The position numbers were made by a program, and so were the translations under genes. The notes beneath the pieces are model-generated. The model worked only from the letters and a program-made list of their open reading frames with translations, was not told the origin of the DNA and did not search any database. A stretch of 64,000 nt of DNA from Candidatus Doudnabacteria bacterium (lineage in GTDB: Bacteria; Patescibacteriota; Doudnabacteria; UBA920), in assembly GCA_003151625.1 (NCBI GenBank), contig PLYC01000021.1, positions 16,235 to 80,234 of the forward strand, written 5' to 3'. This document shows positions 23,697 to 40,387 of this stretch, in pieces (the stretch's first letter is position 1; the number at the start of each line of letters is the position of its first letter).

Positions 23697-23757
23697 TTGC
23701 CTGTCCTCCGTAGCCTTGCCTGCCCGCCGAAGCTACAGCGAAGGAGGGGCGAAAGGA
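23697..23757 (+). repeat. Nested CCTGCCCGCCGAAGC-type palindromic repeat
   Basis: gcctgcccgccgaagctacagcgaaggaggg resembles the insert in the riboflavin kinase gene. Confidence 0.6.
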
Positions 23758-23938
23758 AAAAACCTCAAAAATTCTTAACTTCAACATTTTAAGTATACCA
23801 CAAATTAGTCGGCGTCCTCTGTAATCCCCGAACACCTTGAAAAACCTGGGATTTTATGGTAAACTGTGATAAGTTACTTTAAATTTTGAGGATTTTCCAA
23901 TCTTTCAATCTAAAACCTTCAATCTTAAATCTATATAT

Positions 23939-24013
23939 GGCGCTATCATCTAATGGTTAGGATAAGTGGTTTTCATCCACTAAATCGGGGTTCGATTCCC
24001 CGTAGCGCTACCA
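23939..24013 (+). tRNA. tRNA-Glu (TTC)
   Basis: GGCGCTA acceptor, anticodon arm AGTGG-TTTTCAT-CCACT, GGTTCGATTCC T-arm, encoded CCA. Confidence 0.95.
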
Positions 24014-25508
24014 AAGCAGAATTGCCGCCTTCAAGGGCGGTTTTTGCTTGATAGATATAAGAAAGTTTCGGGGTTGTAAAAGTTTGATAATTATAAATGG
24101 GCTTAATTGGAAAAATCATACCCATCAATTTTAATTTTTGCCAGTAGGTAGTTTTAGGCCAGAGTTTTGGCAAGTCGGCTATAAAGTCAAAAACAAAGCT
24201 CACAGTGTCATCAGCGTTAAAGTCCTGGGTCGCGCTGTCGCTAATTTCCAACTGCTTATCCGCCAGTAATTCCTTGACCTTGGCAAATTCAATTTTAAAA
24301 TCCTCATCGGGCAGTAAATCTCTTTTAACCAAATCCAGCAGTTTGGCTTTTTCCTGTTTTAAGTTTTCTATTTCCTTTTTGGCCTGTTCCTGCTGTTGAT
24401 TCTGCTGTTTAAGCCTGTTTTGGCCGACATCGGTTAGCACCTTTTTAAAGGTTTCCATTATTTCTTTGGTGGGCGTAATTTTGGCCAGACACTTGTCAAA
24501 CTCGTCCTCCAAAGTTTTTTTGGTGATGGCTTTTTTAGACGGGCAGTTTTTATTGTAACAGCGGTAGTAATAATACATACTGCCCCAGCGGTTTTCCGAA
24601 GTATGGGCGGTTAAAGGCCGGGAGCATAAGCCGCAGTCAACTTGGTGGCGCAGGGGGAATAACTCATTAGTCCGACTACCGGCGATAATGTCGCCTTTGG
24701 TGAATCGTTTTAAAAGCTTTTGGTTTTTGTAATAAATATCCTCGGTAATGAGCGTGGGGTGAGAACCTTTAAATTCGCCGCGCTTGTTGCAGATGAGGCC
24801 GAAATAAAATTTGTTGGTTAAAATTTTATGCATCAGCTGAAAGGAAATTTCTTTGCCCGAAGGCGAACGCAAGCCCATTTTGTTTACCTTAATCCGTAAT
24901 TCTTCCTGGGTATACATGCCTTTGAAATACTCTTCAAGCAAAAACTTAACAAGGCCAAACCGGGCAGGGTCTAAGATTATGGTTTTGTCGTGCTTGCCGT
25001 GGTTTTGGTTGAGGTAGCCAAAAGGCGCGCGGTGCGGGAAGCGGCCGGACTTAAGGCACTGGATTATGCCGTCGGTAACTCTCTCACTGCGAACATCGTT
25101 ATCAAGCTGGGCAATGCTAGCCATCATATTTCCCATAAACTTGCCAAAGGAATTTTCGCCAATGGCTTCGGTGGTGGAAATTAACTGGACGCTGATTTTA
25201 TCCAGCAGGCTTTTTATGGCCGAGTAGTCGTTGACGTTGCGGGACAGGCGGTCAACTTTGTTGACGATGACAAAGCTGATTTTGTTTTTCTTGTCGGCGA
25301 CAAACTTAAGCATAGCCTGGAGTCCGGGGCGGTCTGCGGTCTTGGCAGATTCGCCCTCATCGGAAAAAAGCTTAATGGCCTTAATGCCTTTGTCCTGTGC
25401 GTATTTTAAGCAGGCTTCTTTTTGGTTTCCGAGGCTAAAGCCGTCCACTTGGTCGGCGGTGGATACGCGGTAATAAATCACTCCCAGTTTTTGGTTTTCT
25501 TGGTTCAT
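23973..25508 (-). CDS. Large serine recombinase (integrase); 3' end reads through the tRNA antisense
   Basis: YYRVST..Q catalytic Ser, DRLSR, recombinase domain, Zn ribbon (CGLC...YYRC...C), coiled coil. Confidence 0.95.
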   Translation of the reverse strand: MNQENQKLGVIYYRVSTADQVDGFSLGNQKEACLKYAQDKGIKAIKLFSDEGESAKTADRPGLQAMLKFVADKKNKISFVIVNKVDRLSRNVNDYSAIKSLLDKISVQLISTTEAIGENSFGKFMGNMMASIAQLDNDVRSERVTDGIIQCLKSGRFPHRAPFGYLNQNHGKHDKTIILDPARFGLVKFLLEEYFKGMYTQEELRIKVNKMGLRSPSGKEISFQLMHKILTNKFYFGLICNKRGEFKGSHPTLITEDIYYKNQKLLKRFTKGDIIAGSRTNELFPLRHQVDCGLCSRPLTAHTSENRWGSMYYYYRCYNKNCPSKKAITKKTLEDEFDKCLAKITPTKEIMETFKKVLTDVGQNRLKQQNQQQEQAKKEIENLKQEKAKLLDLVKRDLLPDEDFKIEFAKVKELLADKQLEISDSATQDFNADDTVSFVFDFIADLPKLWPKTTYWQKLKLMGMIFPIKPIYNYQTFTTPKLSYIYQAKTALEGGNSALVALRGIEPRFSG

Positions 25509-25561
25509 AAAATTATTTTAAAATTAAGAATCTTCGGTCAAAATATTATACACCCGAAAAC

Positions 25562-25720
25562 TCATCCGGCAAAATTATTTTGCCTTTTTTCCTTGGCCCA
25601 CAGGTCAAAACCGATTTCAGCCAACTGATACATATCCTGCCGGAGCTGTTCCAGTTCTTCCCGGGTGAACCTGTTGCCGTAATCCCCAAGCGAATTTTTA
25701 AAATCATCCAGGGAAATCAT
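25562..25720 (-). CDS. 52-aa protein upstream of the integrase (not in ORF track)
   Basis: MISLDDFKNSLGDYGNRFTREELEQLRQDMYQLAEIGFDLWAKEKRQNNFAG; helical, same strand as the integrase. Confidence 0.65.
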   Translation of the reverse strand: MISLDDFKNSLGDYGNRFTREELEQLRQDMYQLAEIGFDLWAKEKRQNNFAG

Positions 25721-25737
25721 GGCTAAATTTTGTAATG

Positions 25738-25913
25738 TTTAAAAGCATTGAATTTATTGGTAAATTTTCTTAATTCTCTAGTTAAGAGGTATATATCAAG
25801 TCAATGGAAATTAAAAAATATAATTATTTGGCCAAGAAACCTTGAAATTTAAAATCATTGAATTTATTAAGGAATTTTATTTATTTCCAAGATATGAGGT
25901 ATAGATCAAGTCA
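25738..25913. repeat. Two ~66-bp imperfect direct repeats with a 110-bp period
   Basis: tttaaaa.cattgaatttatt...gaggtata.atcaagtca at 25738 and 25848. Confidence 0.8.
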
Positions 25914-26247
25914 GCAAAAACATTAAGGTTTTAGTTGTTATGGTAATATGTTATCGCTTAGTAACAAGCTTACGGCCGCGCCCCTGCGGGGCGGCGGCCT
26001 GCGCCGTTGTCCCACTGGCCGCTTTGCTGGCCGTGGGACACGGCGTCTCAAGGTTGGATCTGGAAAATTGCGGTTAAATCAGCCGGGCAGTCAGGGCAGG
26101 TTCAGAGGGAAATTAGGCAGTAAACTTAAATGTTTGTCAAAGTCAAAATGGGGGCAAAATTAAAAAACAATCTTCACTACTTGAAGATTATCGTTTAGGT
26201 CAAAAACAAACAAAGAGTTAAGCGTGCTACATAAGAATTCTTCTGTG

Positions 26248-26991
26248 CTACACTTCTTTTCGCATATTGGAGATTATTTTGTTAACGGTTCCCTCATCTA
26301 AAAACTCGCCAGTTTGTTTCCGGACGGCTCTGCGTATCTCTATTCGGGGCAAATCCCGCAAAGACCAGATAAGCTGGTTGCGCTTGGTAACGGCCGGGTC
26401 TTTGACTCTTAATTTGCCGAGCTTAATTTTAGGGTTTTGGTATTTGAGTTGTAACGGGTGGATGCTTGTCTTAAACTCTTTGGTAATAAAGTCCCTAATA
26501 ACGCGTTCTGAAGCGTAGGGGCTGATTTTAATGGCTAAGGGATAAGCGGCTAATTCGTTGTCTATGTGGGTTTTACCGTATTTATGTTTGGGCTTTTGTT
26601 TTAAGTCCGAGACTTTGCAAAGGCCTAAATTTTCGTCTTCCAGGTAAGTAATAAAATCCAAATCGTGAAAGATATGATACCAAATGGCGTAGGCAAAGCT
26701 ATTATTAAGCGCGTACTTTTTTATGAATTTTTCCCGAATTTCTTTTTCTATCTGTTCGGTCTTCTCATACAGAAAAGCCTCGCCTTCTAGAGATACGGGA
26801 TAAAATCGGGGCTTTACAGGCTTATCTTCCGGATTATCCGAACTAAGATATTCCGCCGGCACCACCTTGTCCGGCATATACTTGGCCCGCATTTCCCAAA
26901 CAGCATCGTTAAAATCCTGCTTTGCGGAAACTTCGTAAAAATATTCCAAGGCTTTTTTACGGCTTTCGGAGGGTTGTTTTTGTTTTGGCAT
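26248..26991 (-). CDS. Hypothetical protein, possible C-terminal HTH
   Basis: 247-aa ORF ending in basic helices (RNQLIW...EIRR...TVNKIIS). Confidence 0.7.
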   Translation of the reverse strand: MPKQKQPSESRKKALEYFYEVSAKQDFNDAVWEMRAKYMPDKVVPAEYLSSDNPEDKPVKPRFYPVSLEGEAFLYEKTEQIEKEIREKFIKKYALNNSFAYAIWYHIFHDLDFITYLEDENLGLCKVSDLKQKPKHKYGKTHIDNELAAYPLAIKISPYASERVIRDFITKEFKTSIHPLQLKYQNPKIKLGKLRVKDPAVTKRNQLIWSLRDLPRIEIRRAVRKQTGEFLDEGTVNKIISNMRKEV

Positions 26992-26994
26992 AAT

Positions 26995-27147
26995 TTATAA
27001 ATCTAAATCGTCAACATCAATACCCAAAGCTTCCATTCGGTTTAAGGCCTCATCCGGGTCATCCTGAAATTGCTCGGCCAGTTCTTCCTTTAAGCCGTCC
27101 TCGTCCAATTCCATTCTGATTTCGTCTTCCAAATCTTCAAGAGGCAT
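26995..27147 (-). CDS. 50-aa highly acidic protein (not in ORF track)
   Basis: MPLEDLEDEIRMELDEDGLKEELAEQFQDDPDEALNRMEALGIDVDDLDL; fills the gap between hsdR and the next ORF. Confidence 0.7.
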   Translation of the reverse strand: MPLEDLEDEIRMELDEDGLKEELAEQFQDDPDEALNRMEALGIDVDDLDL

Positions 27148-27154
27148 AAAATAA

Positions 27155-30100
27155 TTACGCGGTCACTAAACTCTTGTTGTCATAGTAGTTTTCATAAACA
27201 AAATTATAAACTTCAAATTTTTTGAATTCACAATCTTGCTCTGTGTAGGTAGGCGCGGGTAGTTTCTCAAATAATATATCTGATATGGCGCTCTTTACCC
27301 CCGAGCGGTTGGTTTCAAAATCTCTCCAATGTGGGACAAGAAGCGGCTTAAGATTTTCCAATAATTCGTGTGCCGTGCCTTTAATTTTAGCAACTTCATC
27401 CGGGTTAAGATTTTCTTTAACCAATAAGTCAAAAATTGCCAACTCCTCCTCATTTAAATTTTCCTTCACCGCACGTTGTTCTTCCACGCTCAAATCTTTT
27501 GCAAGGGAAATAAGATCGTCAAAAAGCTTGTCAACATCATGCGCGCCACTGTTATATTCCTGTAACAAAGCAAGTAAGCGATCCATAAATTTGGTTCGTT
27601 TTTTGTTCTTTCTTACCATTTCCGCTATTTTTTGTTCTAGCTCTGCGCTCATGGCCTCCACTTGAAGGTTTTTGTTTTCTAGACCCTCAAAAAATGTATG
27701 CAGTGCTTCGGAATCCAACTTACTTAAATCTTTCAACTTTTTATGTGGCGATATTACGTACTCACCAGCTTGAATAGACTTATCAAGTAAGTCCTCTAAA
27801 TCTTTTTTTACCTGGGTAACATCCACACTTTGAGCGCCTACATCTCGAATACGCGAAGCCAATACGCGAACGGCAGTCACTTCTTTATAATAATCTTCCG
27901 CGCTTGGATCCGGCAACACCGATCGGTAGGCACTTTGTAAATCCGAGGCTAAGTTTAAAAACTTTTTTTTAATTTCCTGTTTGCCAATTATTAAGTCGGC
28001 GAATTTTTCTAACAATAACAATTTTTGATCACCTGGCGCTTCCAACAAAGGCTTAAGTTCAATTTGTATAGCGCTCAAGAAATGTTTTACGGTTTTAAGT
28101 GTACTTTTTAAATCTTCTAAAAGCTCGTCTTTGCTTTTGATTATTTCATCTTTGTCTACACCGCTGGCCGCATACAATGCCAAGGCACGCTCAATATTTT
28201 TGAATACGCCAATGTAATCAACTATTAGCCCGTTCTTTTTGTCTGCGTCAGCTACGCGGTTGGCGCGGGCAATCGTCTGCATTAAAGTATGATTTTTGAG
28301 TGGTTTGTCCAAATATAATGTGGAGAGGTTTGGCACGTCAAAGCCGGTCATCCACATAGCGCAGACAAAAATAATCCGCAGATTGCTGTCGGCTTTCTTG
28401 AATTCTTCTTCCAAATTTCCGTGAATTATCCTATCCCGAATCGGCTTAACGTCAATCTCAAACTCTTCCATATCGGCGATTTCGTTCTGATTGTCGCCCA
28501 GACTTACCATTACCGCCATGTCAACATTTTCGTGCTGTTCCAGTTTTGCCAGTATTTTTTCGTGCTCACGTTCATCCTTGGCTCGGGAAAGGTCCATGCG
28601 CAATTTAGCGATGTAGCGATCCCACTCTTTTTTAACTTTGTCGTACATCCGGAACGTGGTTTTTTTATCAATACAAACCACCATGGCCTTGCCATTATAA
28701 CCCCGCCCAATGTAGTGTTCTACAATATCCCGAGCAATAACATTTAAGCGATCTTCGCGGGTAATAATTTCGTAAAAATTGGAGTACTCGCGTTCTAATC
28801 TTTCTTCTTCATCTTCATCCAAATCATACCTATCCATAAGCTGGCCTAACTGCTCCTCAAGGTTTTCGTTGACGTTTTTTAGCCTCGGCACCCTGTTTTC
28901 ATAATACAGCGGCACAGTTGCGCCATCGGCCACGGACTGGCCAAAATTATACACCGAAACATAACTGCCAAAAGTTTTTACCGTTTCGGCTTCACCGTCT
29001 GTCATTAGCGGAGTGCCGGTAAATCCAATAAAAGATGCATTGGGAAGTGCTTTTCGCATATTTAGCGCCATGCGGTCATATTGGGTACGGTGCGCCTCAT
29101 CGGTCATTACGATAATATCCTCTCGTTCGGAAATGGCGCTGGCGATATCTTGAAATTTCTGAATTGTCGTAAATACTTGCCTATGGTCTGCTCTCAGCAA
29201 TTTTTTAAGATCTTCTACAGAATCCGCATGTACTTCTTTTTCATACACCGCGCCAACATTGGCAAAATTATCGTATGCTTGTCCGTCCAACTGTTTCCTG
29301 TCTGTAACAATAACAAAAGTAAAATTACCGGTAAGTTTTCGCAAAACCTTTTGCGAAAGCCAAACCATAGAATATGATTTGCCCGAGCCTTGGGTATGCC
29401 AAAACACGCCAAGTTTGCCGTCCATTTGCTTACGATTAACAACATGTTCAAACGCCCGGTTAACACCGTAATATTGGAAATACCGCGGCACTATCTTTTT
29501 AGTCTCTCCCTTTGATTCATCAAACAAAATAAAATTTTCAAAAATATCCAAAAGCCTTGTTTTATCGCATACTCCGCTAATTATCGTAGACAAATCTGTT
29601 CTTGGTTTATTATCTTCGCTGTCGGCTTTTTTCCACTCATTGAAAAATTCGTAGGGTGCTGTCAGCGAGCCAAATTTATTTTCTATGCCATTGCTGATAA
29701 TAATTCCCATATTATACCAAAACAATTTGGGAATAGTATCTTTGTAATCGCGAATGTTGTCTTTATATGCATCCACCAAACTCTTGTGAGACGCTTTGAG
29801 TTCTAATAATACAAGCGGAATACCATTTACAAACAGCACAACGTCGGTTCTTCTGGTATACATTTCTCCTACGATCCACAATTGCGAAACGGCCAGAAAA
29901 TGATTATTCTTTGGATTTTCAAAGTCAAAAAACCTTACCCGCTCCGGCTTGCTTTCGCCGTTGGATTGGACGACATTCACGCTCACGCCGTCCCGTAAAA
30001 GTTTGTAAATTTCCTGATTAGCTTTAACCAAGCTTAAATTTGACCTGTCCCGCGTCAATGCGTCCATTGCCTGAACTAAAGATTCTTGTGACAAACCTTT

Positions 30101-30286
30101 ATTTAATTTTACCAGAGCAGGTAACAAAAACTTTTTCAATACCACTTCACCTTGATTTTCCCTTCCAAGCTTTAAATCATCCTCATCCGCAAATGCGTTT
30201 ATATGACAATCCGAATTGCCCCAAACTTCCTTAATAAGTTTGATGACAGTCTGTTCAACCAAATTGTCTTCAGAAAATGGGTTCAT
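27155..30286 (-). CDS. hsdR: Type I restriction enzyme R subunit
   Basis: D..LFVNGIPLVLLELK nuclease motif, HTQGSGKS, DEAHR, FTGTP, TGFD, QTIARANR. Confidence 0.97.
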   Translation of the reverse strand: MNPFSEDNLVEQTVIKLIKEVWGNSDCHINAFADEDDLKLGRENQGEVVLKKFLLPALVKLNKGLSQESLVQAMDALTRDRSNLSLVKANQEIYKLLRDGVSVNVVQSNGESKPERVRFFDFENPKNNHFLAVSQLWIVGEMYTRRTDVVLFVNGIPLVLLELKASHKSLVDAYKDNIRDYKDTIPKLFWYNMGIIISNGIENKFGSLTAPYEFFNEWKKADSEDNKPRTDLSTIISGVCDKTRLLDIFENFILFDESKGETKKIVPRYFQYYGVNRAFEHVVNRKQMDGKLGVFWHTQGSGKSYSMVWLSQKVLRKLTGNFTFVIVTDRKQLDGQAYDNFANVGAVYEKEVHADSVEDLKKLLRADHRQVFTTIQKFQDIASAISEREDIIVMTDEAHRTQYDRMALNMRKALPNASFIGFTGTPLMTDGEAETVKTFGSYVSVYNFGQSVADGATVPLYYENRVPRLKNVNENLEEQLGQLMDRYDLDEDEEERLEREYSNFYEIITREDRLNVIARDIVEHYIGRGYNGKAMVVCIDKKTTFRMYDKVKKEWDRYIAKLRMDLSRAKDEREHEKILAKLEQHENVDMAVMVSLGDNQNEIADMEEFEIDVKPIRDRIIHGNLEEEFKKADSNLRIIFVCAMWMTGFDVPNLSTLYLDKPLKNHTLMQTIARANRVADADKKNGLIVDYIGVFKNIERALALYAASGVDKDEIIKSKDELLEDLKSTLKTVKHFLSAIQIELKPLLEAPGDQKLLLLEKFADLIIGKQEIKKKFLNLASDLQSAYRSVLPDPSAEDYYKEVTAVRVLASRIRDVGAQSVDVTQVKKDLEDLLDKSIQAGEYVISPHKKLKDLSKLDSEALHTFFEGLENKNLQVEAMSAELEQKIAEMVRKNKKRTKFMDRLLALLQEYNSGAHDVDKLFDDLISLAKDLSVEEQRAVKENLNEEELAIFDLLVKENLNPDEVAKIKGTAHELLENLKPLLVPHWRDFETNRSGVKSAISDILFEKLPAPTYTEQDCEFKKFEVYNFVYENYYDNKSLVTA

Positions 30287-30298
30287 AGATTGTTGTAA

Positions 30299-31765
30299 TT
30301 ATTCTATCCATTCTGGTTTAATTTTCCAATCTGTTTTTGGTAAAATTCCAAAATTGGATAGACAAAGTGTATTTCTTGGATCATCCATTGAAAAAGTTAT
30401 GGTAAAACCTCTACCGTCGTTATCTTTTGGTGGTTTAATTTTTCTTTCTAAATAATATTTCAGAGCATAAACTACCTTGAATCCCTTTATTTTGAATTCA
30501 TCAACAAATTTTGTAATCCTATTCACTCCTTTCTTTATTTCTCTAGCCTTGTCTGAATTTACGAAATAAGTACAATCGTATACATAACTTCCAACGATAG
30601 AACAATTGCATAATCGCGCTTCAATTCTCCCATTTTTAAATTCTTTGGCTTCAAAAAGAAGTTTATCCGATTTGATAACAAATTCAATTGATTCATGGCC
30701 AGTACATTTTATATAGAAAAGACACCCCTGTACGTCTTTGTCATTCGACTCATTTTTTACCTCCGTAATAACCTCGTCTGTTTTGCCATAAAAAAGTATG
30801 GGGCGCCAAGCACAAGGACTGTTATATCGAGTATTTTTTTCCCTAAAAATTTTGCCATTAAATAACCATTTCCTTTGCAATTTTGCTAGTTCGCCAACAA
30901 AAAAATTAATATGATCTTTTTCCAGCATGACATTGATACCATGAACTCGCTCTTTTCTTCTTTCCCAAAATGCTTGCGAACCATTTGAAAAATGCATTTT
31001 AAACCCAACCAACCCCTCTTTCTTATCGGTCAGCAACTCAAATACTTCATAATTTGGCATTCGGTGTAGTTTCTTTGTTTTTTTAAAAGAGTACCTAATC
31101 TGCCTGTATAGATCAAAAAAAGCTTGGTAAAAAGCAAAGCAGCGGGATAATTTTTCTGACAGTTCCTCAAAGGAAACTACTTTTGGTAGTCCATTTTCAC
31201 AAATTCTAAATTCAGTATCAGTTAGAGAATAATCGGAATGATAAAATGCATTCCTTATGTCATCATCAAAAAATGAATTAATTTTACTAATCAATTCTTG
31301 CTCGCCAATCTTTTCCGCTTCATTTTTAAGTGTTACTAATTTTTTTGTTGGCGACTGTGGTCTTACATGAAATGGTTTCTTTTTCCCCAATGATTCTCCT
31401 GGGAAAGGGAAAGGAACATAGTTTTTACCTTGTGCGCACCCCAATAAATTATACAGTATTTGGTACGGGGCCGACATCTCAATCGAGTGACAATATATAA
31501 GTAAGGCAACTCGAAAAGAGGATTTTTTTATACCCTTTTTGCTAATTTTTTGAAGTATTTTACTAAACTCGATTAAGGCTTCTTGTGCCTCAATAAAAGG
31601 GTCCCATCCGCCATCTTGTACACCGCTTACACGAAGCAGTGTGTAAATATACTGTAGCCCATTTGTGTCGCGTGCACGTTCAAAAAGATGGTCAAGATAA
31701 CTACGATATTCTTGATAATATGCTTTTTGTGAATCTTGGGTCTTATATTTTACAGTTGTGCCCAT
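30299..31765 (-). CDS. Hypothetical protein with an RX4H (HEPN-like) motif, inside the hsd operon
   Basis: IRNAFYHSDY; located between hsdS and hsdR. Confidence 0.7.
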   Translation of the reverse strand: MGTTVKYKTQDSQKAYYQEYRSYLDHLFERARDTNGLQYIYTLLRVSGVQDGGWDPFIEAQEALIEFSKILQKISKKGIKKSSFRVALLIYCHSIEMSAPYQILYNLLGCAQGKNYVPFPFPGESLGKKKPFHVRPQSPTKKLVTLKNEAEKIGEQELISKINSFFDDDIRNAFYHSDYSLTDTEFRICENGLPKVVSFEELSEKLSRCFAFYQAFFDLYRQIRYSFKKTKKLHRMPNYEVFELLTDKKEGLVGFKMHFSNGSQAFWERRKERVHGINVMLEKDHINFFVGELAKLQRKWLFNGKIFREKNTRYNSPCAWRPILFYGKTDEVITEVKNESNDKDVQGCLFYIKCTGHESIEFVIKSDKLLFEAKEFKNGRIEARLCNCSIVGSYVYDCTYFVNSDKAREIKKGVNRITKFVDEFKIKGFKVVYALKYYLERKIKPPKDNDGRGFTITFSMDDPRNTLCLSNFGILPKTDWKIKPEWIE

Positions 31766-31773
31766 AAGTGTAA

Positions 31774-33024
31774 TTATTTTAGTTCTCGTTTTCCTGTGAC
31801 TAACTGGGGAATCAAAAGATCGCGAATCTGGGAAAGATTTTGATTTTCATCCTGCAAAGACAATACTAAATCAAAATGTTTTTTTACTAGGTGGCTAAAT
31901 TCATTAAGAATTTCTGAACTTGGAATAATGACCTTAACATCCTTAACTTGTATCGGACTTAAATTTTGCTGGGCAGCACCATTAGACATCCCCTCCAGTT
32001 TTTGCTGAAATCTCTTTTGCCTAAATAATAAGTAAATGTATTCTCTTTTATTTGTTCCCGTTGGATTTAATTTCGCGACTCGTTGATTTAACAAATAATC
32101 TGAACCATATACAACACAAATACGTCCAACATTCCCAGTCAATGAAAGTAGAATGTCACCACTATTCAAAATGCAATTTTCTGGCAATTTTGAAGGTAGG
32201 TCATCAATAAACGAGTCAAAATTTAATACAAATTTTCCATCATGAACATTTTTTATGGTAACTATTTTATACTTTCCGCTTTCTTGGTATGTTGACCCTT
32301 TGAAAGGAAACCCTGAAATAACATTTACGAGTTCACTAATCTTTCCAACTTTCCAACCCTCTGGAATCATACCGTATTCGGTGCCGCTGTTAATCATTTT
32401 TTCTTTTTCATGGCCGGGAAATTTGAATTTTATAAACCACTCGGTATAGAGAAGCTGGGACATTTGCTCCAGGGCTTTGATGCGTTTTTCGTTATTTTCT
32501 ATTAGGTCGTCGTAGGCGGAGAGGACAGAAGCAATGCGTGTTTGGGTTGGGAGCTCTGGAAGCTCAATTTGCAAACCGTAAAGTAAATTTATTGTGTACG
32601 CTTTTTGGGACGATCCAATAGTACATTTATTTAATTCTGATTTACCTTGCGGTGAAAGAAGCCAATAATATAACCATTGACCATTTATTCCATGAAAATT
32701 TCTAAACCATGTTAAATTTCCATCCTTAAAATAAAATTCTTCGTTCTCTTTTACCAAATACGGATTTCCGATTGTTCCGACAGAGGTCAACAATAGATCA
32801 CCCTTTTGAGGCACACCGTATTTGGCCTTTATTTCCTCAAATTTATCTCTAGAAATATATATTAAGTCGCTTACTTCTGCAGAGCTTCTTTGTTTTTCGC
32901 TGATTTCCTTTCCACGATAGAAAGGAACGCCTGATGATAAATACTCATCAGCAAAAATTCTCTTGCTTGAGGTTATTTCACAATAATCCTTAATTTTTAC
33001 TTTTTGAAAACTTACCATAATCAT
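31774..33024 (-). CDS. hsdS: Type I R-M specificity subunit
   Basis: Two TRDs; Q.RIASVLSAYDDLIENN and LSQIRDLLIPQLVTG conserved regions. Confidence 0.95.
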   Translation of the reverse strand: MIMVSFQKVKIKDYCEITSSKRIFADEYLSSGVPFYRGKEISEKQRSSAEVSDLIYISRDKFEEIKAKYGVPQKGDLLLTSVGTIGNPYLVKENEEFYFKDGNLTWFRNFHGINGQWLYYWLLSPQGKSELNKCTIGSSQKAYTINLLYGLQIELPELPTQTRIASVLSAYDDLIENNEKRIKALEQMSQLLYTEWFIKFKFPGHEKEKMINSGTEYGMIPEGWKVGKISELVNVISGFPFKGSTYQESGKYKIVTIKNVHDGKFVLNFDSFIDDLPSKLPENCILNSGDILLSLTGNVGRICVVYGSDYLLNQRVAKLNPTGTNKREYIYLLFRQKRFQQKLEGMSNGAAQQNLSPIQVKDVKVIIPSSEILNEFSHLVKKHFDLVLSLQDENQNLSQIRDLLIPQLVTGKRELK

Positions 33025-34602
33025 TTATAAAATACTTTCCCAATCGTCCTGGATATTTTTTTCCAGCTTGTGAGCTTCGACGGTTAAACCTGTAAATTCA
33101 CTCATTAATTCTTTCATTCGCGCGTTAAAGTCCACATCGCTCATTTCTTTTTCTATAATCTCCACATAACGCCCAGGATTAAGTGAGTAGTCGTTAGCTC
33201 GAATTTCCTCAAGAGTTGCAACTTTGCATCGGCCTTTAATGTCTTGATATTTTTCTTCGCCTTTTTCTTTGCGATAGCGGCGAACAACACCGGCGATTTC
33301 TTGTATTTGCTCATCTGTCCAGTCGCTATGAGCACGGTCAATTTCGGTAAAAATATCTTGCGCGTTTATAAATAAAACTTTGTTTTGCCGTTCGCTGCCG
33401 CTTTTGCGTTTGTCAAAAAACCACAAGGTACAGGAAAGTGTAGCGTTCATAAACATATTTGTGCCAACGGAAACAATTGCATCCACCATTCCGGCGTCTA
33501 CCATTTTTTTGCGGATTTCTTTTTCCGCATTTCCGGCATCACTGGAAGCGTTTGACATAACAAAGCCTGCCCGTCCTTGCGGGTTTAAAGCACTAGCAAA
33601 CATTTGCATCCATAAATAATTAGCGTTGCTGATTTCACCTTTACCAGTAAGCGGCAATCCTAAATTGTATCGCGGGTCGCCTTGAATTTTTGCTGGATCA
33701 ATTACAATTTGTTTGTTCTTGTCTTTGCCTTTTACATTAAACGGCGGATTTGCAAGGACAAAGTCAAAAGCGCCAACGCTGTTAAACGTATCGGTATAAA
33801 AAGAATTTACTTCCGCAATTTTACCCGACAAACCGTGAATAGCTAGGTTCATTTTGGCCGTGCGAATGTTGCTACTACCTTTTTCTTGGCCATACAGTGC
33901 AACTTCGTTCATAACTTGAGTTTTCTTTTCGGAATGCGCTTTAACAAAATTTGCAGACTGCACAAACATACCGCCGCTTCCGCAGGCGGGGTCGTATATT
34001 TTTCCATGGTATGGCTCAATAATTTCTACCAGTAATTTAACAATAGATTGCGGCGTAAAAAACTCGCCGCCTTTGGCTCCTTCGGCGCGCGCAAACTCAC
34101 CAAGGAAATATTCGTAAATTTCCCCGAATGCGTCACCCTCAATGTCATCGGGGATTTGATTAAAATTTTTCAGTAAGGTGATTAATATCTGACTATTTTC
34201 GCCTGGAATTTTGTGAAGCGAAGTATAATCTTGCGGCAAAACACCGGCAAGATCGGTATTTTCTTCTTCTATTGCCTTCATCGCATCATTAATTTTTTTG
34301 CCAATATTTGCACTCTCAGGTAGGCTCATTAAATAAGAATACGTGGCAATTTCTGGCAAATACAGAACACCCTTGGATTTATAATGGTCAGGCGTAATAG
34401 GTTTATTTCTTCCGGAATAAGCTTTAACAGCGCGCTCTGCAACAATCTCCGACTGGAATCTCTTAAAACGTACGTCCGCAAACTTAAGAAAAATAAGCCC
34501 TAAAATTGGCTCGGAAATTTCGTTTAATTTTAGCCCGGAGTTTGCCCGAAGCTGTACCGCCGCAGACCAAAGCCTTTCGTGAAGTTGTTTTCTGGTTGTC
34601 AT
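33025..34602 (-). CDS. hsdM: Type I R-M N6-adenine methyltransferase
   Basis: GEFFTP, YDPACGSGG, NPPF. Confidence 0.97.
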   Translation of the reverse strand: MTTRKQLHERLWSAAVQLRANSGLKLNEISEPILGLIFLKFADVRFKRFQSEIVAERAVKAYSGRNKPITPDHYKSKGVLYLPEIATYSYLMSLPESANIGKKINDAMKAIEEENTDLAGVLPQDYTSLHKIPGENSQILITLLKNFNQIPDDIEGDAFGEIYEYFLGEFARAEGAKGGEFFTPQSIVKLLVEIIEPYHGKIYDPACGSGGMFVQSANFVKAHSEKKTQVMNEVALYGQEKGSSNIRTAKMNLAIHGLSGKIAEVNSFYTDTFNSVGAFDFVLANPPFNVKGKDKNKQIVIDPAKIQGDPRYNLGLPLTGKGEISNANYLWMQMFASALNPQGRAGFVMSNASSDAGNAEKEIRKKMVDAGMVDAIVSVGTNMFMNATLSCTLWFFDKRKSGSERQNKVLFINAQDIFTEIDRAHSDWTDEQIQEIAGVVRRYRKEKGEEKYQDIKGRCKVATLEEIRANDYSLNPGRYVEIIEKEMSDVDFNARMKELMSEFTGLTVEAHKLEKNIQDDWESIL

Positions 34603-34653
34603 ACTAATTTATATTTAAAAATAACTGCTCGCGCTTTAATTTTTAGTCCTTTG

Positions 34654-35922
34654 CTATTTCAATAAATCCTCAAGCTCACAGGAGAGCAGGGCGGATTTGT
34701 TAAGCACGATTTGTTCTTTCTGGTTTAGGTTGTCCGCGGTAAGTCTAATAACTTTTGTGATTATAGCGTTGCCAATAACAACGTGGTTGGTTTTCTTTAA
34801 GTAGTTTTCGGTTTTTTCGTAAAACAGTGTTATAAAGCGCTTTAGCTTGTCGCTTAGTTTATCTTTCATATTTCCCGTAACCAATGCGACTACTTTTTCG
34901 TTTATTTCCGTCGGTATATTCCCCTCCGCGAATACTATCCAATAATCGCTTATGGCATAGGCAAAGCGCACTGGCATTTTATCTTTAGTTTCGTAAAAAT
35001 AAACAAAACGGTAATTCTGGGAACTAAAATCCTGGCCAATGGCTATTTCGCGCAACTCGCCGACTGTATTTATATCGTAAGAGTTTACAAGCCGGAGATA
35101 ATTTTCCAGCCAAGTTTCAAGCCAATGCGTAATAAAAGTCTGATCCACAAATAGCGGAGTTAAATCCTGCTGTAAGTTTGTTTTGTTTACTTTGTTCATT
35201 TGCACGGTCAGCCGGTCAAACAGCGCCTGCAAATGCGTAACATCAACCTCCTTGGCTTTAAGATAGTCCAAATCGGGGACAGTTTTCTTTTCCATATACC
35301 ACAGCAGGTCGTAAATGTCGCGGCCTTTTTCTTCGTATATTTCCTTGCCCACGCCACGCTGTCCACGTAAAAATATAGCGGCAATTTTACTGGCCATAAG
35401 CGCAGACATATTGTAAGTCTTTATTACGAATGACAGCTGGTCGTGGTTTACGGGTATCCGTTCCGTAACCGCTTTGGGAGCCGTAAAATGGTTCAAATCA
35501 ATTTTAACGTGCACCTGTTTTGAAGGGTGGCTCATTCCCAGCTCGTCGCCGATAATGAATTTTAAAAGCAACCCGCGGCCGTTGGTAATTTTTATGTTCA
35601 AAAGATCCGGCCCGGTGCTGTAGGTTTCCAAAAAATGTTCCTGCAACGCTTCCTTAAGGTTGTTAAGCAAGCTGTCGGTAGGGGCTTCCGCAATTTCAAA
35701 ATCCAAATCAACGGACATTCTGTTCAACTCATGGCAAATGCGCAAGGCGGAGCCGCCGTACATAGTCCAATTGCTGTAGACCGGGTGGTGATAAATAAAA
35801 TTTAACAGGTAATACTGCAATTCCTCTTTTAAGGCGTTGCGCTGAACTTCAATATCCACCTGTCCGTAACGAGACAGGTCTTCAAGTTTTCTTTTTAGTA
35901 AAATAATTATTTGGTTATTCAT
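34654..35922 (-). CDS. AbiEii-family nucleotidyltransferase toxin with C-terminal extension
   Basis: YGGSAL...RMSVDLDF, ASKIAA, GRDIYDL. Confidence 0.9.
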   Translation of the reverse strand: MNNQIIILLKRKLEDLSRYGQVDIEVQRNALKEELQYYLLNFIYHHPVYSNWTMYGGSALRICHELNRMSVDLDFEIAEAPTDSLLNNLKEALQEHFLETYSTGPDLLNIKITNGRGLLLKFIIGDELGMSHPSKQVHVKIDLNHFTAPKAVTERIPVNHDQLSFVIKTYNMSALMASKIAAIFLRGQRGVGKEIYEEKGRDIYDLLWYMEKKTVPDLDYLKAKEVDVTHLQALFDRLTVQMNKVNKTNLQQDLTPLFVDQTFITHWLETWLENYLRLVNSYDINTVGELREIAIGQDFSSQNYRFVYFYETKDKMPVRFAYAISDYWIVFAEGNIPTEINEKVVALVTGNMKDKLSDKLKRFITLFYEKTENYLKKTNHVVIGNAIITKVIRLTADNLNQKEQIVLNKSALLSCELEDLLK

Positions 35923-36535
35923 TGTTTAAATATTTTTTAATCATCTCATAAAATAAAGTCTGCTCCTTTTTGTCCATTTCTTCAATATCAATGCGCAGGT
36001 CGCGGATTAGCCCATCCACCATTTCCGGCTTTATCCCCCGAAACTGTCTGGTCTTAAAATACAACAGGTCAAACAATGCTTTGGAAGGCGCGGCAATAAA
36101 AAAATCAAATTTTCCTTTTACCAAAGAGAATCCGGAAAATAATTCTTTTTTAATTGAATTGTAGCCAAAGTTTCCGGCCCGCGTCTGGTAGTCTCTGGTA
36201 ACTTTTAGCGTAACCGAGGTAATAGTCTGGATGGCTTCGGTTGTTAGTTCGTAATACTGCAAAGCCGCCCAGGAGCTGACGTAAGACGGCGTCCTAATGA
36301 CGTTGGCCAGATAAAATTTGTAGGAAATATCCGCCCTGTTGTTTTCGTAAAAGTAAGTTGTTGTATACAGCCCTTTTTTAAACTGGATAATATCCTTGGA
36401 CTTCAAAGAGCGGCCGATATAGCTATCAACCGTGGTATTTTTTAGGCCGTACTGCTTGCTTAACTGGTAAATAGCGCTTTTGTTAAAATACGGCAAACTC
36501 TTGAGCTGTTCTAACAATATTTCTCTATATTTCAT
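35915..36535 (-). CDS. AbiEi-family antitoxin
   Basis: KKGLY, PSYVS..AALQYY, ITSVT, A.PSKALFD; overlaps the abiEii start. Confidence 0.88.
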   Translation of the reverse strand: MKYREILLEQLKSLPYFNKSAIYQLSKQYGLKNTTVDSYIGRSLKSKDIIQFKKGLYTTTYFYENNRADISYKFYLANVIRTPSYVSSWAALQYYELTTEAIQTITSVTLKVTRDYQTRAGNFGYNSIKKELFSGFSLVKGKFDFFIAAPSKALFDLLYFKTRQFRGIKPEMVDGLIRDLRIDIEEMDKKEQTLFYEMIKKYLNNE

Positions 36536-36548
36536 AATTGTGATGTAA

Positions 36549-36577
36549 TCATAACAATGATGAAATACTTTGTCAAT
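36549..36577 (-). promoter_or_regulatory. Sigma70 promoter of the abiE-hsd operon
   Basis: Minus strand TTGACA-N17-TATGAT. Confidence 0.7.
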
Positions 36578-36630
36578 ATGGATAGTTATTTGGATATAAA
36601 TTTAAGAAAATACCCTTTATTTATGGGTAT

Positions 36631-36780
36631 TTTGCTTCCTTATGGCTTTTTATTGTAATTCTGGATCCCGTCCAGTCAAGGGTAAAACCAAATTATTTGC
36701 CATAGGCCATAAATTGGTTTTAATCCCGTTGACTGTCCAGGCGTTCCAGAATTTTGTTTTCGCCATAATCAGTAAGCAAA
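36631..36780. promoter_or_regulatory. ~150-nt hairpin, putative ssDNA promoter (copy 1)
   Basis: Five nested stems including cagtcaaggg/ccc(g)ttgactg; homologous to 38488-38632. Confidence 0.7.
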
Positions 36781-36787
36781 AAAGATT

Positions 36788-37270
36788 ATGGAATACCAAG
36801 TCAATGTCAATTATCGGTTTCAAGCAGTTAATGAAAAGGAGGCAAAAGAAAAAGCTGTAAAATATTTAGCTAACACCCTAAAAGTCCAGCCAATGTCCAA
36901 GGCAGTATGCAGTCCCCTTGAGATTGCCGACCAGTGCTGGGATTTTAGGAAAAAGGACAAGGAGCACTTTTGCGTGTTCTTTTTAAATACCCAAAACCAA
37001 ATTATCAGCCGGGAGATTATTAGCATTGGAACTTTGAACGCCAGTCTAATTCACCCGCGGGAATGTTTTAGGACGGCAATATCTAAAAACTGCGCCTCAG
37101 TCATTTTTGTCCATAACCATCCAAGCGGCAGTCTAGAACCCTCGGACGAAGACATTGCCGTAACCAAGCGCCTTAAAGATGCCGGCAAACTTATCGGCAT
37201 CGAAGTTTTGGACCATGTGATTGTAACGGCTGAGTCCCATAAAAGCCTTAAGGAACAAGGCTTGGTATAA
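36788..37270 (+). CDS. RadC-like JAB domain protein
   Basis: KEHF, GTLNASLIHPRE, HNHPSG...PS.ED, LDHVI. Confidence 0.93.
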   Translation: MEYQVNVNYRFQAVNEKEAKEKAVKYLANTLKVQPMSKAVCSPLEIADQCWDFRKKDKEHFCVFFLNTQNQIISREIISIGTLNASLIHPRECFRTAISKNCASVIFVHNHPSGSLEPSDEDIAVTKRLKDAGKLIGIEVLDHVIVTAESHKSLKEQGLV

Positions 37271-37276
37271 GCCAGA

Positions 37277-38062
37277 CTAACTCTTTGAGCCCTTTTCGGT
37301 TTCGATTTTGAATTCTTCAAATTTGTTTTTATATGCAATAAAAAGATCTTGGGCCAAATCCAAAATTACTTTGGTATGTTTTTCCATTGTCGGCGATATT
37401 CTCTGACGCCTTGTTCTATAGCCTCGAGTTTTTAATAAGTTATCCGAGGTATTTATATCCATCTCGTGAATAATTTGATTCCTTACGGTAAAAGCATCTT
37501 TAAGTGCGTTCATTCTGTCAGCAGTGAATATCTTATTTGTGCTTAACCCAGAAGCGTCAGAAACCATACACAGTTGTCCAACGGACTGGAGGCTGTCTTT
37601 GGTCATACTGCTTAAGTATTCTTTTAAAAATATTTCCCTTGGATTTTGGTCTATCAAAGCCAAGGCAACTGTATTTAATATCTTTTCCGGACTCTTTTTG
37701 TCTATACCATTTTTAACGTAATTTCTAAATTTTTCTTGGGCATTTTTGTCTACAGTTATCAATTTTGAAAGTTTGGTTTTGGTCAGCTGTTTAACAAATA
37801 CGTCAAGTCCAGCGCAAGCAAAAATCAGCATTGCACGATATAGGTCTTGTTGGTAATGGGTAGATGGGCCACCCTTTGAGCCGCGTCTGATAATTTTATA
37901 CAGCAAATTGAAGTTATTAACGGACTCTGCTGTCTTTAGCAAAATATTGTATTCAAAACTAAAAAGACTGTCGTCCTTCTCAGCCGAAAGGTGAATTTTA
38001 TAAAATCCTAATTCCCGTTTTTTAACAGCCTTTTTCGCCTTACTGGATTTAAGCTTTGCCAT
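37277..38062 (-). CDS. HEPN domain protein (RiboL-PSP-like)
   Basis: DLYRAMLIFACAGLD N-terminal helix; RNQIIH RX4H motif. Confidence 0.75.
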   Translation of the reverse strand: MAKLKSSKAKKAVKKRELGFYKIHLSAEKDDSLFSFEYNILLKTAESVNNFNLLYKIIRRGSKGGPSTHYQQDLYRAMLIFACAGLDVFVKQLTKTKLSKLITVDKNAQEKFRNYVKNGIDKKSPEKILNTVALALIDQNPREIFLKEYLSSMTKDSLQSVGQLCMVSDASGLSTNKIFTADRMNALKDAFTVRNQIIHEMDINTSDNLLKTRGYRTRRQRISPTMEKHTKVILDLAQDLFIAYKNKFEEFKIETEKGSKS

Positions 38063-38074
38063 AAAGATTTTACT

Positions 38075-38413
38075 TCAGGAAACATTATCGCCGTCAGATG
38101 GCATGGCCGTTGCAATTGCGTTGGTAAATAACGAATCACAGTGGACTAACAAAGACTCAATTAAACGCCCATGGTATATTGCGTAGACTTCGGAACTGAT
38201 AGTTTTGCTCTTAGGTTTAATAATAAAAAAGGTCAGCTCTTTGCCACTTTCTACTTCCGGACGGAACCACGCCAAATATTTCCATTGTTGCGCCGTATGT
38301 GTAAAATCGCCATCTTTATCATAAGACCAAGTGACTATTAGCCCGTCATCAATTGCCTTCTTAAAAGAGGATAGCACTTTATTCGGAGTGGAAGTTTCTA
38401 AATGTACGGCCAT
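38075..38413 (-). CDS. Hypothetical protein upstream of the HEPN gene
   Basis: 112 aa, TWSYDKDGDFTH...W...YHGR; own TTGACT-N17-TAAAAT promoter at 38438-38466. Confidence 0.8.
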   Translation of the reverse strand: MAVHLETSTPNKVLSSFKKAIDDGLIVTWSYDKDGDFTHTAQQWKYLAWFRPEVESGKELTFFIIKPKSKTISSEVYAIYHGRLIESLLVHCDSLFTNAIATAMPSDGDNVS

Positions 38414-38487
38414 AAAATTTTCATTATTTATAGCACTATTTTAAAACTTTACTAATATAAAGTCAATTTTGCAAAAAAACCAATTCC

Positions 38488-38632
38488 TTTGCTTCCTTAT
38501 GGCTTCTCATTATACTGGCCGTTTACGGCCGGTCAAGGGTAAATTTCATTTATTTGCCGTGGGCCATAAAATCAATTTAATCCCTTGACTGCCGTAACCT
38601 GCGGCCAGTATATGATTGCCATAATAAGTAAT
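38488..38632. promoter_or_regulatory. ~145-nt hairpin, putative ssDNA promoter (copy 2)
   Basis: ttatggc/gccataa, tatactggccg/cggccagtata and gtcaaggg/cccttgac stems. Confidence 0.7.
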
Positions 38633-38648
38633 CAAGAAAGGAGTTAAT

Positions 38649-38846
38649 ATGCCTAAAGTCAAAAAGGCAGTTAGCAAGAGGCAGGGAATCACGCCGGAGA
38701 TGAAGTTAAACATCATCAAGGCGTCCTTGCAGAGAAGTATCAATTACTTTATGGAATTGAGACACTCTGTAGACCCCTCTTCCAGCGATTATCACGATTT
38801 CGGAAAAAAGGTTTCCGCGTATATCGCTGTAAAGCAGACAGTCTAA
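38649..38846 (+). CDS. 65-aa hypothetical protein
   Basis: AAGGAG RBS; follows hairpin copy 2. Confidence 0.65.
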   Translation: MPKVKKAVSKRQGITPEMKLNIIKASLQRSINYFMELRHSVDPSSSDYHDFGKKVSAYIAVKQTV

Positions 38847-38898
38847 CAAACACCAAAACAAAAACAAAAATCTTTCTTTAATTTTTAACCTTATCCCA

Positions 38899-39057
38899 AT
38901 GAAAATTATGACTGCACAGTTTGTCTACGAGATTACCTGTCCAAGATGCCAATACACATGGAGCGCTACCAAGGAAGAGACCTTTGACCTTGATATTGTG
39001 TCCTGCTCCCAATGTGGTTCCTGTGAGCTTGAAATTACCAAAAAGTTAGAAGCTTAA
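38899..39057 (+). CDS. 52-aa zinc-ribbon protein (not in ORF track)
   Basis: CPRC...CSQC motifs. Confidence 0.6.
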   Translation: MKIMTAQFVYEITCPRCQYTWSATKEETFDLDIVSCSQCGSCELEITKKLEA

Positions 39058-39208
39058 AATCAAAACAAAAACAAAATTTTTTTATGGTCGCAAATTTGCT
39101 AAAACCTCCAAAAACGCGTTAAACTGAATTCATTAGCGGAATAAAATCACGGAATTGCCGTAATTCCTGGATTAAGAGGTTGTAATGCTGTGAACAGAAG
39201 GCTACCAC

Positions 39209-39240
39209 AAAAGCCCGAACTTTGGTTCGGGTTTTTATTT
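39209..39240 (+). terminator. Intrinsic terminator (probable displaced tRNA-Glu terminator)
   Basis: aagcccgaac-tttg-gttcgggttttt immediately after GCTACCA. Confidence 0.8.
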
Positions 39241-39298
39241 ATGGTAACTTAGACATTCCTTTGTCTTTTATGCCAAAGTCTGGTAAGTTTAATACATT

Positions 39299-40387
39299 AT
39301 GAACAAACAAATTATAGTGTTTTTGGGCATTGCCCAATTGGTGCTAATTGCTTTTAATCTGATTATTTACGGCTTGCTTTTAACTTTTTTCCCGGCGCTT
39401 GGTACGCACAAAGTAGAGGTGCTAATAACCGTGCTTTTGCTGGCAATATCATTTTTAATTTTTTCTGTACTAACTTTCAAATACGAAAATATTGTTCTAA
39501 GAATCGGTTACAAACTTTCGTCAATTTGGCTGGTTCTTGGCTTTTATTTTGTTTTGGCCTCGCTTATTGCGCTTATTATATATCTGCTATCCCCCATCAA
39601 CTTGTTATATTATGGTCTGGCCGCAGTGTTTGTTAGCTCGGTTTTAACTATTTACGGACTTATCAATGCCCGGGTGACCAGACTCACGAAGATAAAAATC
39701 AGCCTCCCCAACCTGCCGGCATACTGGAAAGACAAAAGCGCCATAATGGTTTCCGATTTGCACTTAGGCCAGGTCTTGCGAAAAGGTTTTGCCAATAAAA
39801 TCATAAATTTAATAAACCGCGAAAGTCCGGAAATAGTTTTTATTCCGGGAGACTTTTACGACGGCGTGCATACGGGATTTCAAAATTTAGCCAATGAATT
39901 TAAAAAAATCAGCGCGCCCCAAGGCATATATTTTTGTTCCGGCAATCACGAAATGTTCGCTGGCTACGGGCAATGTGAACAGGCATTAAGAGGCGCGGGC
40001 ATAAAAATTTTGGAAAATCAAAAAGTGGAAATCCAGGGACTCCAAATTGCCGGTGTGTCTTACAAACACGATGTTATGCCCGATTTGTCCCAGACTCTAC
40101 AAAATATAAGCCTCGATAAAAATAAGCCCAGTGTTTTACTCAAACACGTACCGCTGCAGTTAAAGGAGGTTTGGGAAGCCGGTTTTAACCTGGTGCTGTG
40201 CGGCCATTCCCACCATGGTCAAATATGGCCGGGCAGGCTAATTACCAAGCGCTACTTTAAAGGTTTTGATTACGGTTTAAAAACCTTTAACAATTTACTG
40301 GTTTACACCAGTAGCGGAGCAGGCACCTGGGGTCCGCCCATGCGCATATTTACCAAATCCGAAGTTGTCAAAATAATATTTATATGA
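39299..40387 (+). CDS. Membrane-bound metallophosphoesterase
   Basis: SDLH, GDFYD, GNHE, GHSHHGQ. Confidence 0.93.
   Translation: MNKQIIVFLGIAQLVLIAFNLIIYGLLLTFFPALGTHKVEVLITVLLLAISFLIFSVLTFKYENIVLRIGYKLSSIWLVLGFYFVLASLIALIIYLLSPINLLYYGLAAVFVSSVLTIYGLINARVTRLTKIKISLPNLPAYWKDKSAIMVSDLHLGQVLRKGFANKIINLINRESPEIVFIPGDFYDGVHTGFQNLANEFKKISAPQGIYFCSGNHEMFAGYGQCEQALRGAGIKILENQKVEIQGLQIAGVSYKHDVMPDLSQTLQNISLDKNKPSVLLKHVPLQLKEVWEAGFNLVLCGHSHHGQIWPGRLITKRYFKGFDYGLKTFNNLLVYTSSGAGTWGPPMRIFTKSEVVKIIFI

Follow-up and report, generated by a model that had tools for sequence, protein, structure and literature searches.

Does an island whose attachment site lies inside its own integrase gene make one enzyme on the excised circle and another in the chromosome, and what would such an exchange achieve? 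The question is raised by a 64,000-nucleotide stretch of the genome of a Candidatus Doudnabacteria bacterium (hereafter the window), which carries a defence island of ∼15.2 kb adjoining the CCA end of tRNA-Glu(TTC), the only gene for this tRNA in the 1.5-Mb genome. The island is delimited by two copies of the core GCTACCA, 15,194 bp apart (at 24007 and 39201; Table 1), and codes for a large serine recombinase.

A core within the integrase gene

The open reading frame (ORF) of the integrase runs across the tRNA-side core, as the preliminary description of the window had stated. Its product ends in ...SALVA-LRGIEPRFSG*, and the last 10 codons (LRGIEPRFSG) are the antisense strand of the tRNA gene, which is borne out by the ARAGORN call together with the ORF. 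When the two cores were joined in silico, as on an excised circle, the frame continued into a different tail of 26 aa (stop at 39119-39121), resulting in a protein of 527 aa and reproducing the join that had been proposed. Excision had also been expected to rejoin the tRNA to a terminator at 39209; in the reconstructed empty site, the tRNA does adjoin the hairpin located there.

The Mx8 integrase, whose gene is laid out in a similar way, is a tyrosine integrase with a tRNA target. The enzyme of the window is a member of the large serine recombinases and not of the Mx8 family: in Pfam, serine recombinase domains were the only ones detected. The resolvase domain (PF00239) was matched with an E-value of 3e-32, and its residues Y12, R14, V15 and S16 are invariant across 47 sequences; the Recombinase domain (PF07508) scored above its cut-off, and the zinc ribbon (PF13408) slightly below (24.1 bits; cut-off 25.3), with all four cysteines invariant in the same 47 sequences. 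The coiled coil appears as long helices (residues 349-425) in the AlphaFold model of P0031, a homologue with a natural tail. The fold matches the integrases of SPbeta, Bxb1 and phiC31, that of SPbeta being the best Foldseek hit.

Where the island ends could not be read from the core itself. A 7-mer such as GCTACCA is expected ∼0.8 times per 15 kb on one strand, and an 11-bp match to the tRNA end, containing a third core copy (at 38965), competes with the copy at 39201; therefore, evidence from outside the window was needed. It came from a tail profile trained on nine tails of other organisms, with which all possible TGGN joins were scored. The join at 39201 reached 35.4 and ranked first among 188 possible TGGN joins in 38 kb (runner-up, 0.3). 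The boundary at 38965 was rejected: it lies inside an ORF, yields a tail of 12 aa without family match and has a shift-free profile score of −44.6. Contigs of public runs, which may derive from the window's own sample, span both integrated junctions without differences (X3, 23942-24342; X4, 39067-39596).

In two genomes of the same genus (G018 and G010), tRNA-Glu(TTC) also lies beside the phosphoesterase gene, in the orientation opposite to that in the window, and in G018 both flanks adjoin with the island absent. Because the tRNA orientation is reversed, these genomes show only that host sequence has resumed by 39267. The whole block of promoter, tRNA, island and terminator (∼23830-39260) looks inverted relative to the corresponding loci (L274 in G018, L275 in G010), since tRNA-Glu(TTC) faces the phosphoesterase gene in the window and points away from it in the other two.

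Table 1. Positions of the features discussed, in window coordinates.
Feature	Position	Strand	Basis or remark
tRNA-Glu(TTC), encoded CCA; target gene, restored by insertion	23939..24013	+	ARAGORN
Large serine recombinase, 511 aa in the integrated form	23973..25508	-	Pfam Resolvase, Recombinase, Zn ribbon
T-loop GTTCGAT; inferred zinc-ribbon-domain binding motif of the attB arm	23990..23996	+	
Core GCTACCA, tRNA-side junction, within the integrase gene	24007..24013	+	
Terminator-like hairpin and T run, encoded by the integrase 3′ end, just past CCA	24024..24041	+	pattern only
52-aa ORF directly upstream of the integrase; conserved partner	25562..25720	-	
247-aa ORF, unknown	26248..26991	-	no Pfam, PHROG or PADLOC match
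Type I restriction-modification operon: hsdM 33025-34602, hsdS 31774-33024, hsdR 27155-30286	27155..34602	-	Pfam, PADLOC
488-aa ORF between hsdS and hsdR	30299..31765	-	no Pfam, PHROG or PADLOC match
AbiEi/AbiEii toxin-antitoxin pair	34654..36535	-	
RadC-like JAB	36788..37270	+	Pfam
RiboL-PSP-HEPN	37277..38062	-	Pfam
Decoy 11-bp match to the tRNA end (third core copy, 38965)	38962..38972	+	inside a 52-aa Cys-rich ORF, 38899-39057
Coding sequence of the 26-aa circle-form tail and stop; reaches the integrase only upon excision	39119..39200	-	
TTACAAC, variant attP-arm motif (family TTGGAAC); mirrors the T-loop 5 bp outward	39179..39185	-	overlaps tail codons 7-9
Core GCTACCA, far junction	39201..39207	+	
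Host terminator hairpin; would follow the tRNA in the empty site	39209..39236	+	

The circle-form tail and its DNA among relatives

Database relatives are dominated by the inserted form: antisense-tRNA peptides form the end of 108 among the 120 best homologues, and the remainder are mostly cut or of other kinds, except for three (and P0104, judged by eye) that end in a natural tail resembling the one created by the 39201 join. A tail-biased search recovered 47 such natural joined proteins among 146 new hits. With a profile of these four natural tails, 8 of 13 relatives were seen to have an in-frame tail behind a TGGT core on the upstream side of the integrase; among the five misses, four had less than 17 kb of upstream sequence and three less than 7 kb.

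The clade is common in the phylum, with integrase matches in 72 of 401 sampled genomes (E ≤ 1e-80). Sixty of the 88 extra matches from this sample (the best-scoring ones, two on short contigs being skipped) and loci from three collection scans were added. In 246 stretches, 116 ORF matches (two ORFs counted twice) reach the C-terminal part of the profile; 83 overlap the antisense strand of a tRNA or transfer-messenger RNA (tmRNA) 3′ end, eight have a tRNA beyond the stop codon, and neither applies to the other 25, several of which are truncated by the end of the locus. Most targets are tRNAs for Glu (40), Lys (10) or Arg (6); tmRNA is the target in four cases (L252, L254, L255 and L031-L032). 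The CCA end is read in one frame in 50/66 cases and in a second frame in 15/66; the second-frame integrases cluster in the tree (16 labelled among 19 tips, support 0.72). Record titles of relatives include Verrucomicrobiota, Acidobacteria, Planctomycetota and Bacteroidota. Viral contigs contributed one full-length tRNA-type relative among 80 loci, phage and plasmid collections contained distant relatives only, and a region search with P0100 returned P0100 as its sole match.

A held-out test of the tail profile was run on 40 loci (window included), after exclusion of the 6 used for training, the 3 that offered no candidate and the 33 that have a different frame or lack an encoded CCA. Scores of at least 10 were obtained in 12 of the 40, and in none of them when the opposite strand was scored. 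Each of the 17 best joins with a score of at least 4 had a core identity of at least 6 bp, compared with 4 of 23 low scorers and 7.6% of all candidates. To avoid circularity, far ends were also picked by DNA alone (score at least 16, 19 of 51 loci). Behind these, at least 24 codons were open in the integrase frame in 18/19 cases, compared with 0/19 and 5/19 in the other frames and a background of 42%, and the hydrophobic pattern of the tail was present in 17/19 (background, 4.4%).

Altogether, 23 islands (window included) could be mapped, with lengths of 3.6-15.2 kb and cores of 6-14 bp, and all carry the same in-frame tail at the far end, as the preliminary description would have it if the join were genuine. 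The tails are 25-45 aa long with the consensus VxxxxxxWNxLxxELxxWxxL; what is conserved is an internal helix (positions 8-22), and the linker behind it varies in length. Identity at the three codon positions is 0.41, 0.51 and 0.33. The earlier impression of an amphipathic tail is weak for the single sequence (shuffle p = 0.078 for the window; p < 0.05 in 3 of 26 tails) and clear for the family, hydrophobic periodicity peaking at 100-110 degrees over 72 tails. Judged from these comparisons of sequence, the circle-form tail is conserved as a protein and, therefore, unlikely to be idle.

In the 33 loci with another frame or without encoded CCA, the main profile found nothing convincing; DNA-only selection yielded a different tail in five of them and, in a few that lack CCA, such as L237, tails that looked like the main type. 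Five loci of the second-frame subclade (L215, L218, L222, L225 and L235) have, by eye, a far-end tail of their own (∼FExLLxWVxxIM), and the small gene upstream of the integrase is longer there.

Some islands stand in tandem (L206/L207 in G196, L210/L251 in G476, L021 in G017, L208 and L209), where the older integrase gains the tail of its neighbour and is full-length in the chromosome. A second, orphan tail of the same family lies behind a TGGTGG core on contig C27 of G000 (∼3330-3430, + strand); it is the top score of the genome, which has only one strong integrase match, and its contig is without tRNA, suggesting a relic or an unassembled second island. An integrase of 71% identity in G017 (L021:248-520) contains an internal stop, terminates without a detected tRNA or a good tail, and is possibly decayed.

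The tail is also part of the attachment site. In serine integrases, the zinc-ribbon motif lies 5 bp nearer to the centre in the chromosomal site (attB) than in that of the circle (attP), according to the available part of Rutherford et al (PMC3783163). In the mapped islands, the tail arm carries the motif TT(G/C)GAAC and the tRNA arm is the T-loop, read as ATCGAAC; the identity of this one arm pair over the 23 islands is 0.63 at a shift of 5 bp, 0.47 at 4 bp and 0.13-0.30 elsewhere, so that the T-loop mimic in the tail DNA fits the geometry of a serine integrase. No matching motif was found in the other two arms of the 23 islands. The enzyme would cut within TGGT, that is, at the CCA end, with the T-loop read by its zinc-ribbon domain. 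A spare attP on the inverted strand was absent: no match reached 19/36 in the window, and none exceeded 22/36 in the 23 islands. The 3′ end of the integrase gene may serve the host as well. In 33 of 50 loci the region of the terminator-like hairpin folds more stably than DNA further into the gene, and in the window this hairpin likely replaces the displaced host terminator for the tRNA in the inserted state.

That part of the tail doubles as a DNA motif fits an account in which attP and the gene overlap simply to save room, the helix is a C-terminus like any other that the enzyme can do without, and the two forms do not differ in behaviour. A mostly dispensable helix would be expected to decay; this one has persisted in divergent enzymes with several tRNA and tmRNA targets, and the second-frame subclade has a different helical tail at the same place (five loci, by eye), which makes this account quite improbable.

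Possible roles of the exchanged tail

The preliminary description had spoken of two recombinase isoforms. The C-termini do differ between the two states; the inserted one, however, is not a designed second tail. Over 50 loci, its length varies from 10 to 71 aa and is set by the tRNA used, and it is predicted to be disordered (residues 491-511, pLDDT [predicted local distance difference test] ∼49), so that the switch would consist of a helix being present or absent. In the model of P0031, the natural tail forms helices at 500-506 and 508-527 (pLDDT 81-95). The integrase profile aligns to the SPbeta integrase up to position 469, which corresponds to SPbeta residue 509 of 545; by ungapped extrapolation, the junction falls at about residue 539, ∼7 residues past F532. 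This residue is tied to directionality and flanked by the helix of the recombination directionality factor (RDF), as given in the part of Shin et al (PMC11722253) that was available. Because the junction maps near the end of the SPbeta integrase, the tailless inserted form corresponds to a complete canonical integrase, and the helix appears, from the alignment, to be an appendix beside the region that binds directionality factors.

The second component is the 52-aa ORF directly upstream. Homologues were detected 59 times over 95 integrase loci, all on the same strand (one is a duplicate), and in 45 of the 59 they end at most 75 nt from the integrase match. The protein has no identity in Pfam, PHROG or the PDB; matches to EF-hands look like chance. 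It is likely an RDF and likely made together with the integrase.

The direction of a serine integrase is normally set by a separate factor that is separately expressed. For the island, it is proposed with a probability of ∼0.5 that the 26-residue helix is a built-in directionality element, the integrating form of the enzyme being made from the circle and the excising form from the chromosome. Since the attachment core lies within the integrase gene, a circle would encode the helical tail and an inserted copy the 10 tRNA-derived residues in its place. With the tail present in the circle form, the enzyme would be shielded from the 52-aa factor and integration favoured; once inserted, the tail would be lost, and enzyme and 52-aa protein together would excise. 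The element would thereby read its own state from its own coding sequence and not from separate promoters. More tentatively, and with the odds against it, the last helix of the circle form may act, throughout this large clade of serine integrases that target tRNA and tmRNA, by blocking the co-expressed 52-aa directionality factor, insertion deleting the helix and handing control to the factor. As part of this blocking mechanism, the same 30 bp would be a T-loop-mimicking binding site and the code for the helix, in two reading frames.

Several observations weigh against a directionality element. No small ORF was detected in 36 of the 95 loci. A promoter-like match lies between the small ORF and the integrase (6 found, 4.6 expected), which, if real, would weaken the case for co-expression. 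Neither between tail and small protein nor between tail and integrase body was profile similarity found. In the held-out test, 28 of the 40 loci scored below 10, and by the DNA-only score, neither the window's own site nor the sites of its three closest mapped relatives (G019, G028 and G136) come out on top, because their motif deviates. Part of the tail conservation is DNA-driven, since its WN codons overlap the DNA motif. The placeable chromosomal genes with a natural tail (G017, G196 and G476) sit in tandem arrays; natural joined proteins thus show that the joined form exists, and need not come from circles. Neither a circle nor an empty-site joint, for which reads had been suggested earlier, was seen in the shallow contigs of eight public runs, a depth that is uninformative. 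Finally, the structural models compare different proteins with different alignments and are, therefore, confounded, and in the first one 21 of the 23 tail-only alignment rows were misaligned.

The tail-bearing model is also the surer one in the catalytic domain and in domain arrangement (predicted template modelling score 0.69 vs 0.46, equally confounded), which would agree with a switch of activity as in Mx8: efficient synapsis or catalysis would require the helix, and the tailless form, weaker in both directions, would keep the island in place. In Mx8, integration creates a new 3′ end of int and alters recombination efficiencies (PMC6070905, as far as its text was available). However, the tailless form of the island enzyme keeps all canonical domains and must excise the element for it to spread, and the conserved small gene upstream is left unexplained. 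An activity switch is thus considered unlikely, less so than a helix of no consequence.

The ends of the tails point to yet another role, which also tells against a built-in directionality element. A non-polar residue ends 43 of 72 tails, compared with 261 of 815 genome ORFs, and the last three residues carry no charge in 47 of 72 (307 of 815), as if the circle-form tail were a protease tag that would render the enzyme short-lived, the integrated form being stable. There is a precedent in the repressor of mycobacteriophage BPs, whose tag is removed by integration (accessible text of PMC3694055). Yet only 3 of the 72 tails end in Ala-Ala, and the enrichment of non-polar ends is overstated because the sequences are related; moreover, the conserved part is the internal helix before a variable linker, and a tag needs no conserved helix. 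Such a stability switch has a low probability, similar to that of the activity switch; tag and directionality element could also coexist.

Cargo, known systems and significance

The remaining genes of the island are listed in Table 1. The 488-aa ORF is a candidate defence gene in the cargo slot of the restriction-modification operon. AbiEii (34654-35922, − strand) has 422 aa, and the models end by residue 276, leaving ∼145 additional C-terminal residues. Replication or transfer genes were not identified among the island proteins in Pfam and PHROG scans. The guanine-plus-cytosine content of the island (0.34-0.42) differs from that of the left 4 kb (0.43-0.47); the contrast is weak on the right side because the flank there has 0.38-0.46. 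Upstream of the tRNA (23700-23755), a GC-rich palindromic repeat of 30-55 bp was noted that recurs in the genome and in relatives. In L016 (G017:C4, 1501-1688), split partial copies of tRNA-Glu(TTC) follow that gene, and L007 has a similar partial copy.

Integrases of Sulfolobus SSV are tyrosine recombinases whose gene is cut into two large parts upon integration, whereas in the island enzyme all canonical domains survive. In both, the integrase gene extends across attP (for SSV, PMC4383910, in the part available). The same holds for Mx8 (intP/intX; Mx9 is similar), in which attP lies inside the integrase gene and integration creates a new 3′ end and changed recombination (PMC6070905 and PMC4383910, both in part). 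The island enzyme, in contrast, belongs to the large serine recombinases; the exchange is confined to its last 26 residues, and crossover takes place at the CCA end, with a core of 6-14 bp. The principle of an integrase gene crossing attP is thus already known for the tyrosine integrases of Mx8 and SSV. In BPs, too, attP lies inside a coding sequence and integration removes a C-terminal element (PMC3694055, in part); there, the split gene is a repressor and the element a protease tag, here they are a recombinase and a conserved helix.

As to the enzyme itself, domain order, catalytic motif, zinc ribbon and coiled coil are shared with the phage large serine integrases (SPbeta SprA/SprB, Listeria LI/A118, Bxb1, phiC31 and TP901-1), as are the short core and the 5-bp offset of the zinc-ribbon motif between attB and attP. 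The 52-aa protein resembles SprB as a small helical partner of similar size. In SPbeta, sprA and sprB flank attP and are under separate control (PMC8270828, available part); in the island, attP falls within the integrase gene itself, a tRNA or tmRNA is targeted at its 3′ end, and the integrase gene is immediately preceded by the small one.

According to the Islander survey of 2015, in the part available, targeting of tRNA genes is not known from serine integrases (PMC4383910), and tRNA or tmRNA is never mentioned in the accessible main text of Durrant et al (PMC10083194). The remark of the preliminary description that such targeting is more typical of tyrosine integrases accordingly stands for the enzymes described so far; in the present clade, such targeting is the rule (83/116 matched ORFs). 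Such serine integrases are not described in the resource note on TIGER (PMC12424338), nor in the accessible parts of PMC12884075 and PMC13626063, a figure of the latter splitting sites by integrase type. The literature search found no description of a tail swap by an attachment site within the gene of a serine integrase; the TIGER database or supplements could list such islands.

A common clade of serine integrases thus inserts at tRNA and tmRNA ends and, in doing so, alters its own C-terminus. Because the tRNA-tailed form accounts for 108 of the 120 best relatives in the database, mining for insertion tools would clone the version without the helix. The two natural enzymes, which differ only in one helix, allow a direct test of what the extreme C-terminus contributes to directionality. 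If the helix does block the factor, the island would carry a switch contained in one operon and reading its own state, in integrases aimed at the near-universal T-loop and CCA end.

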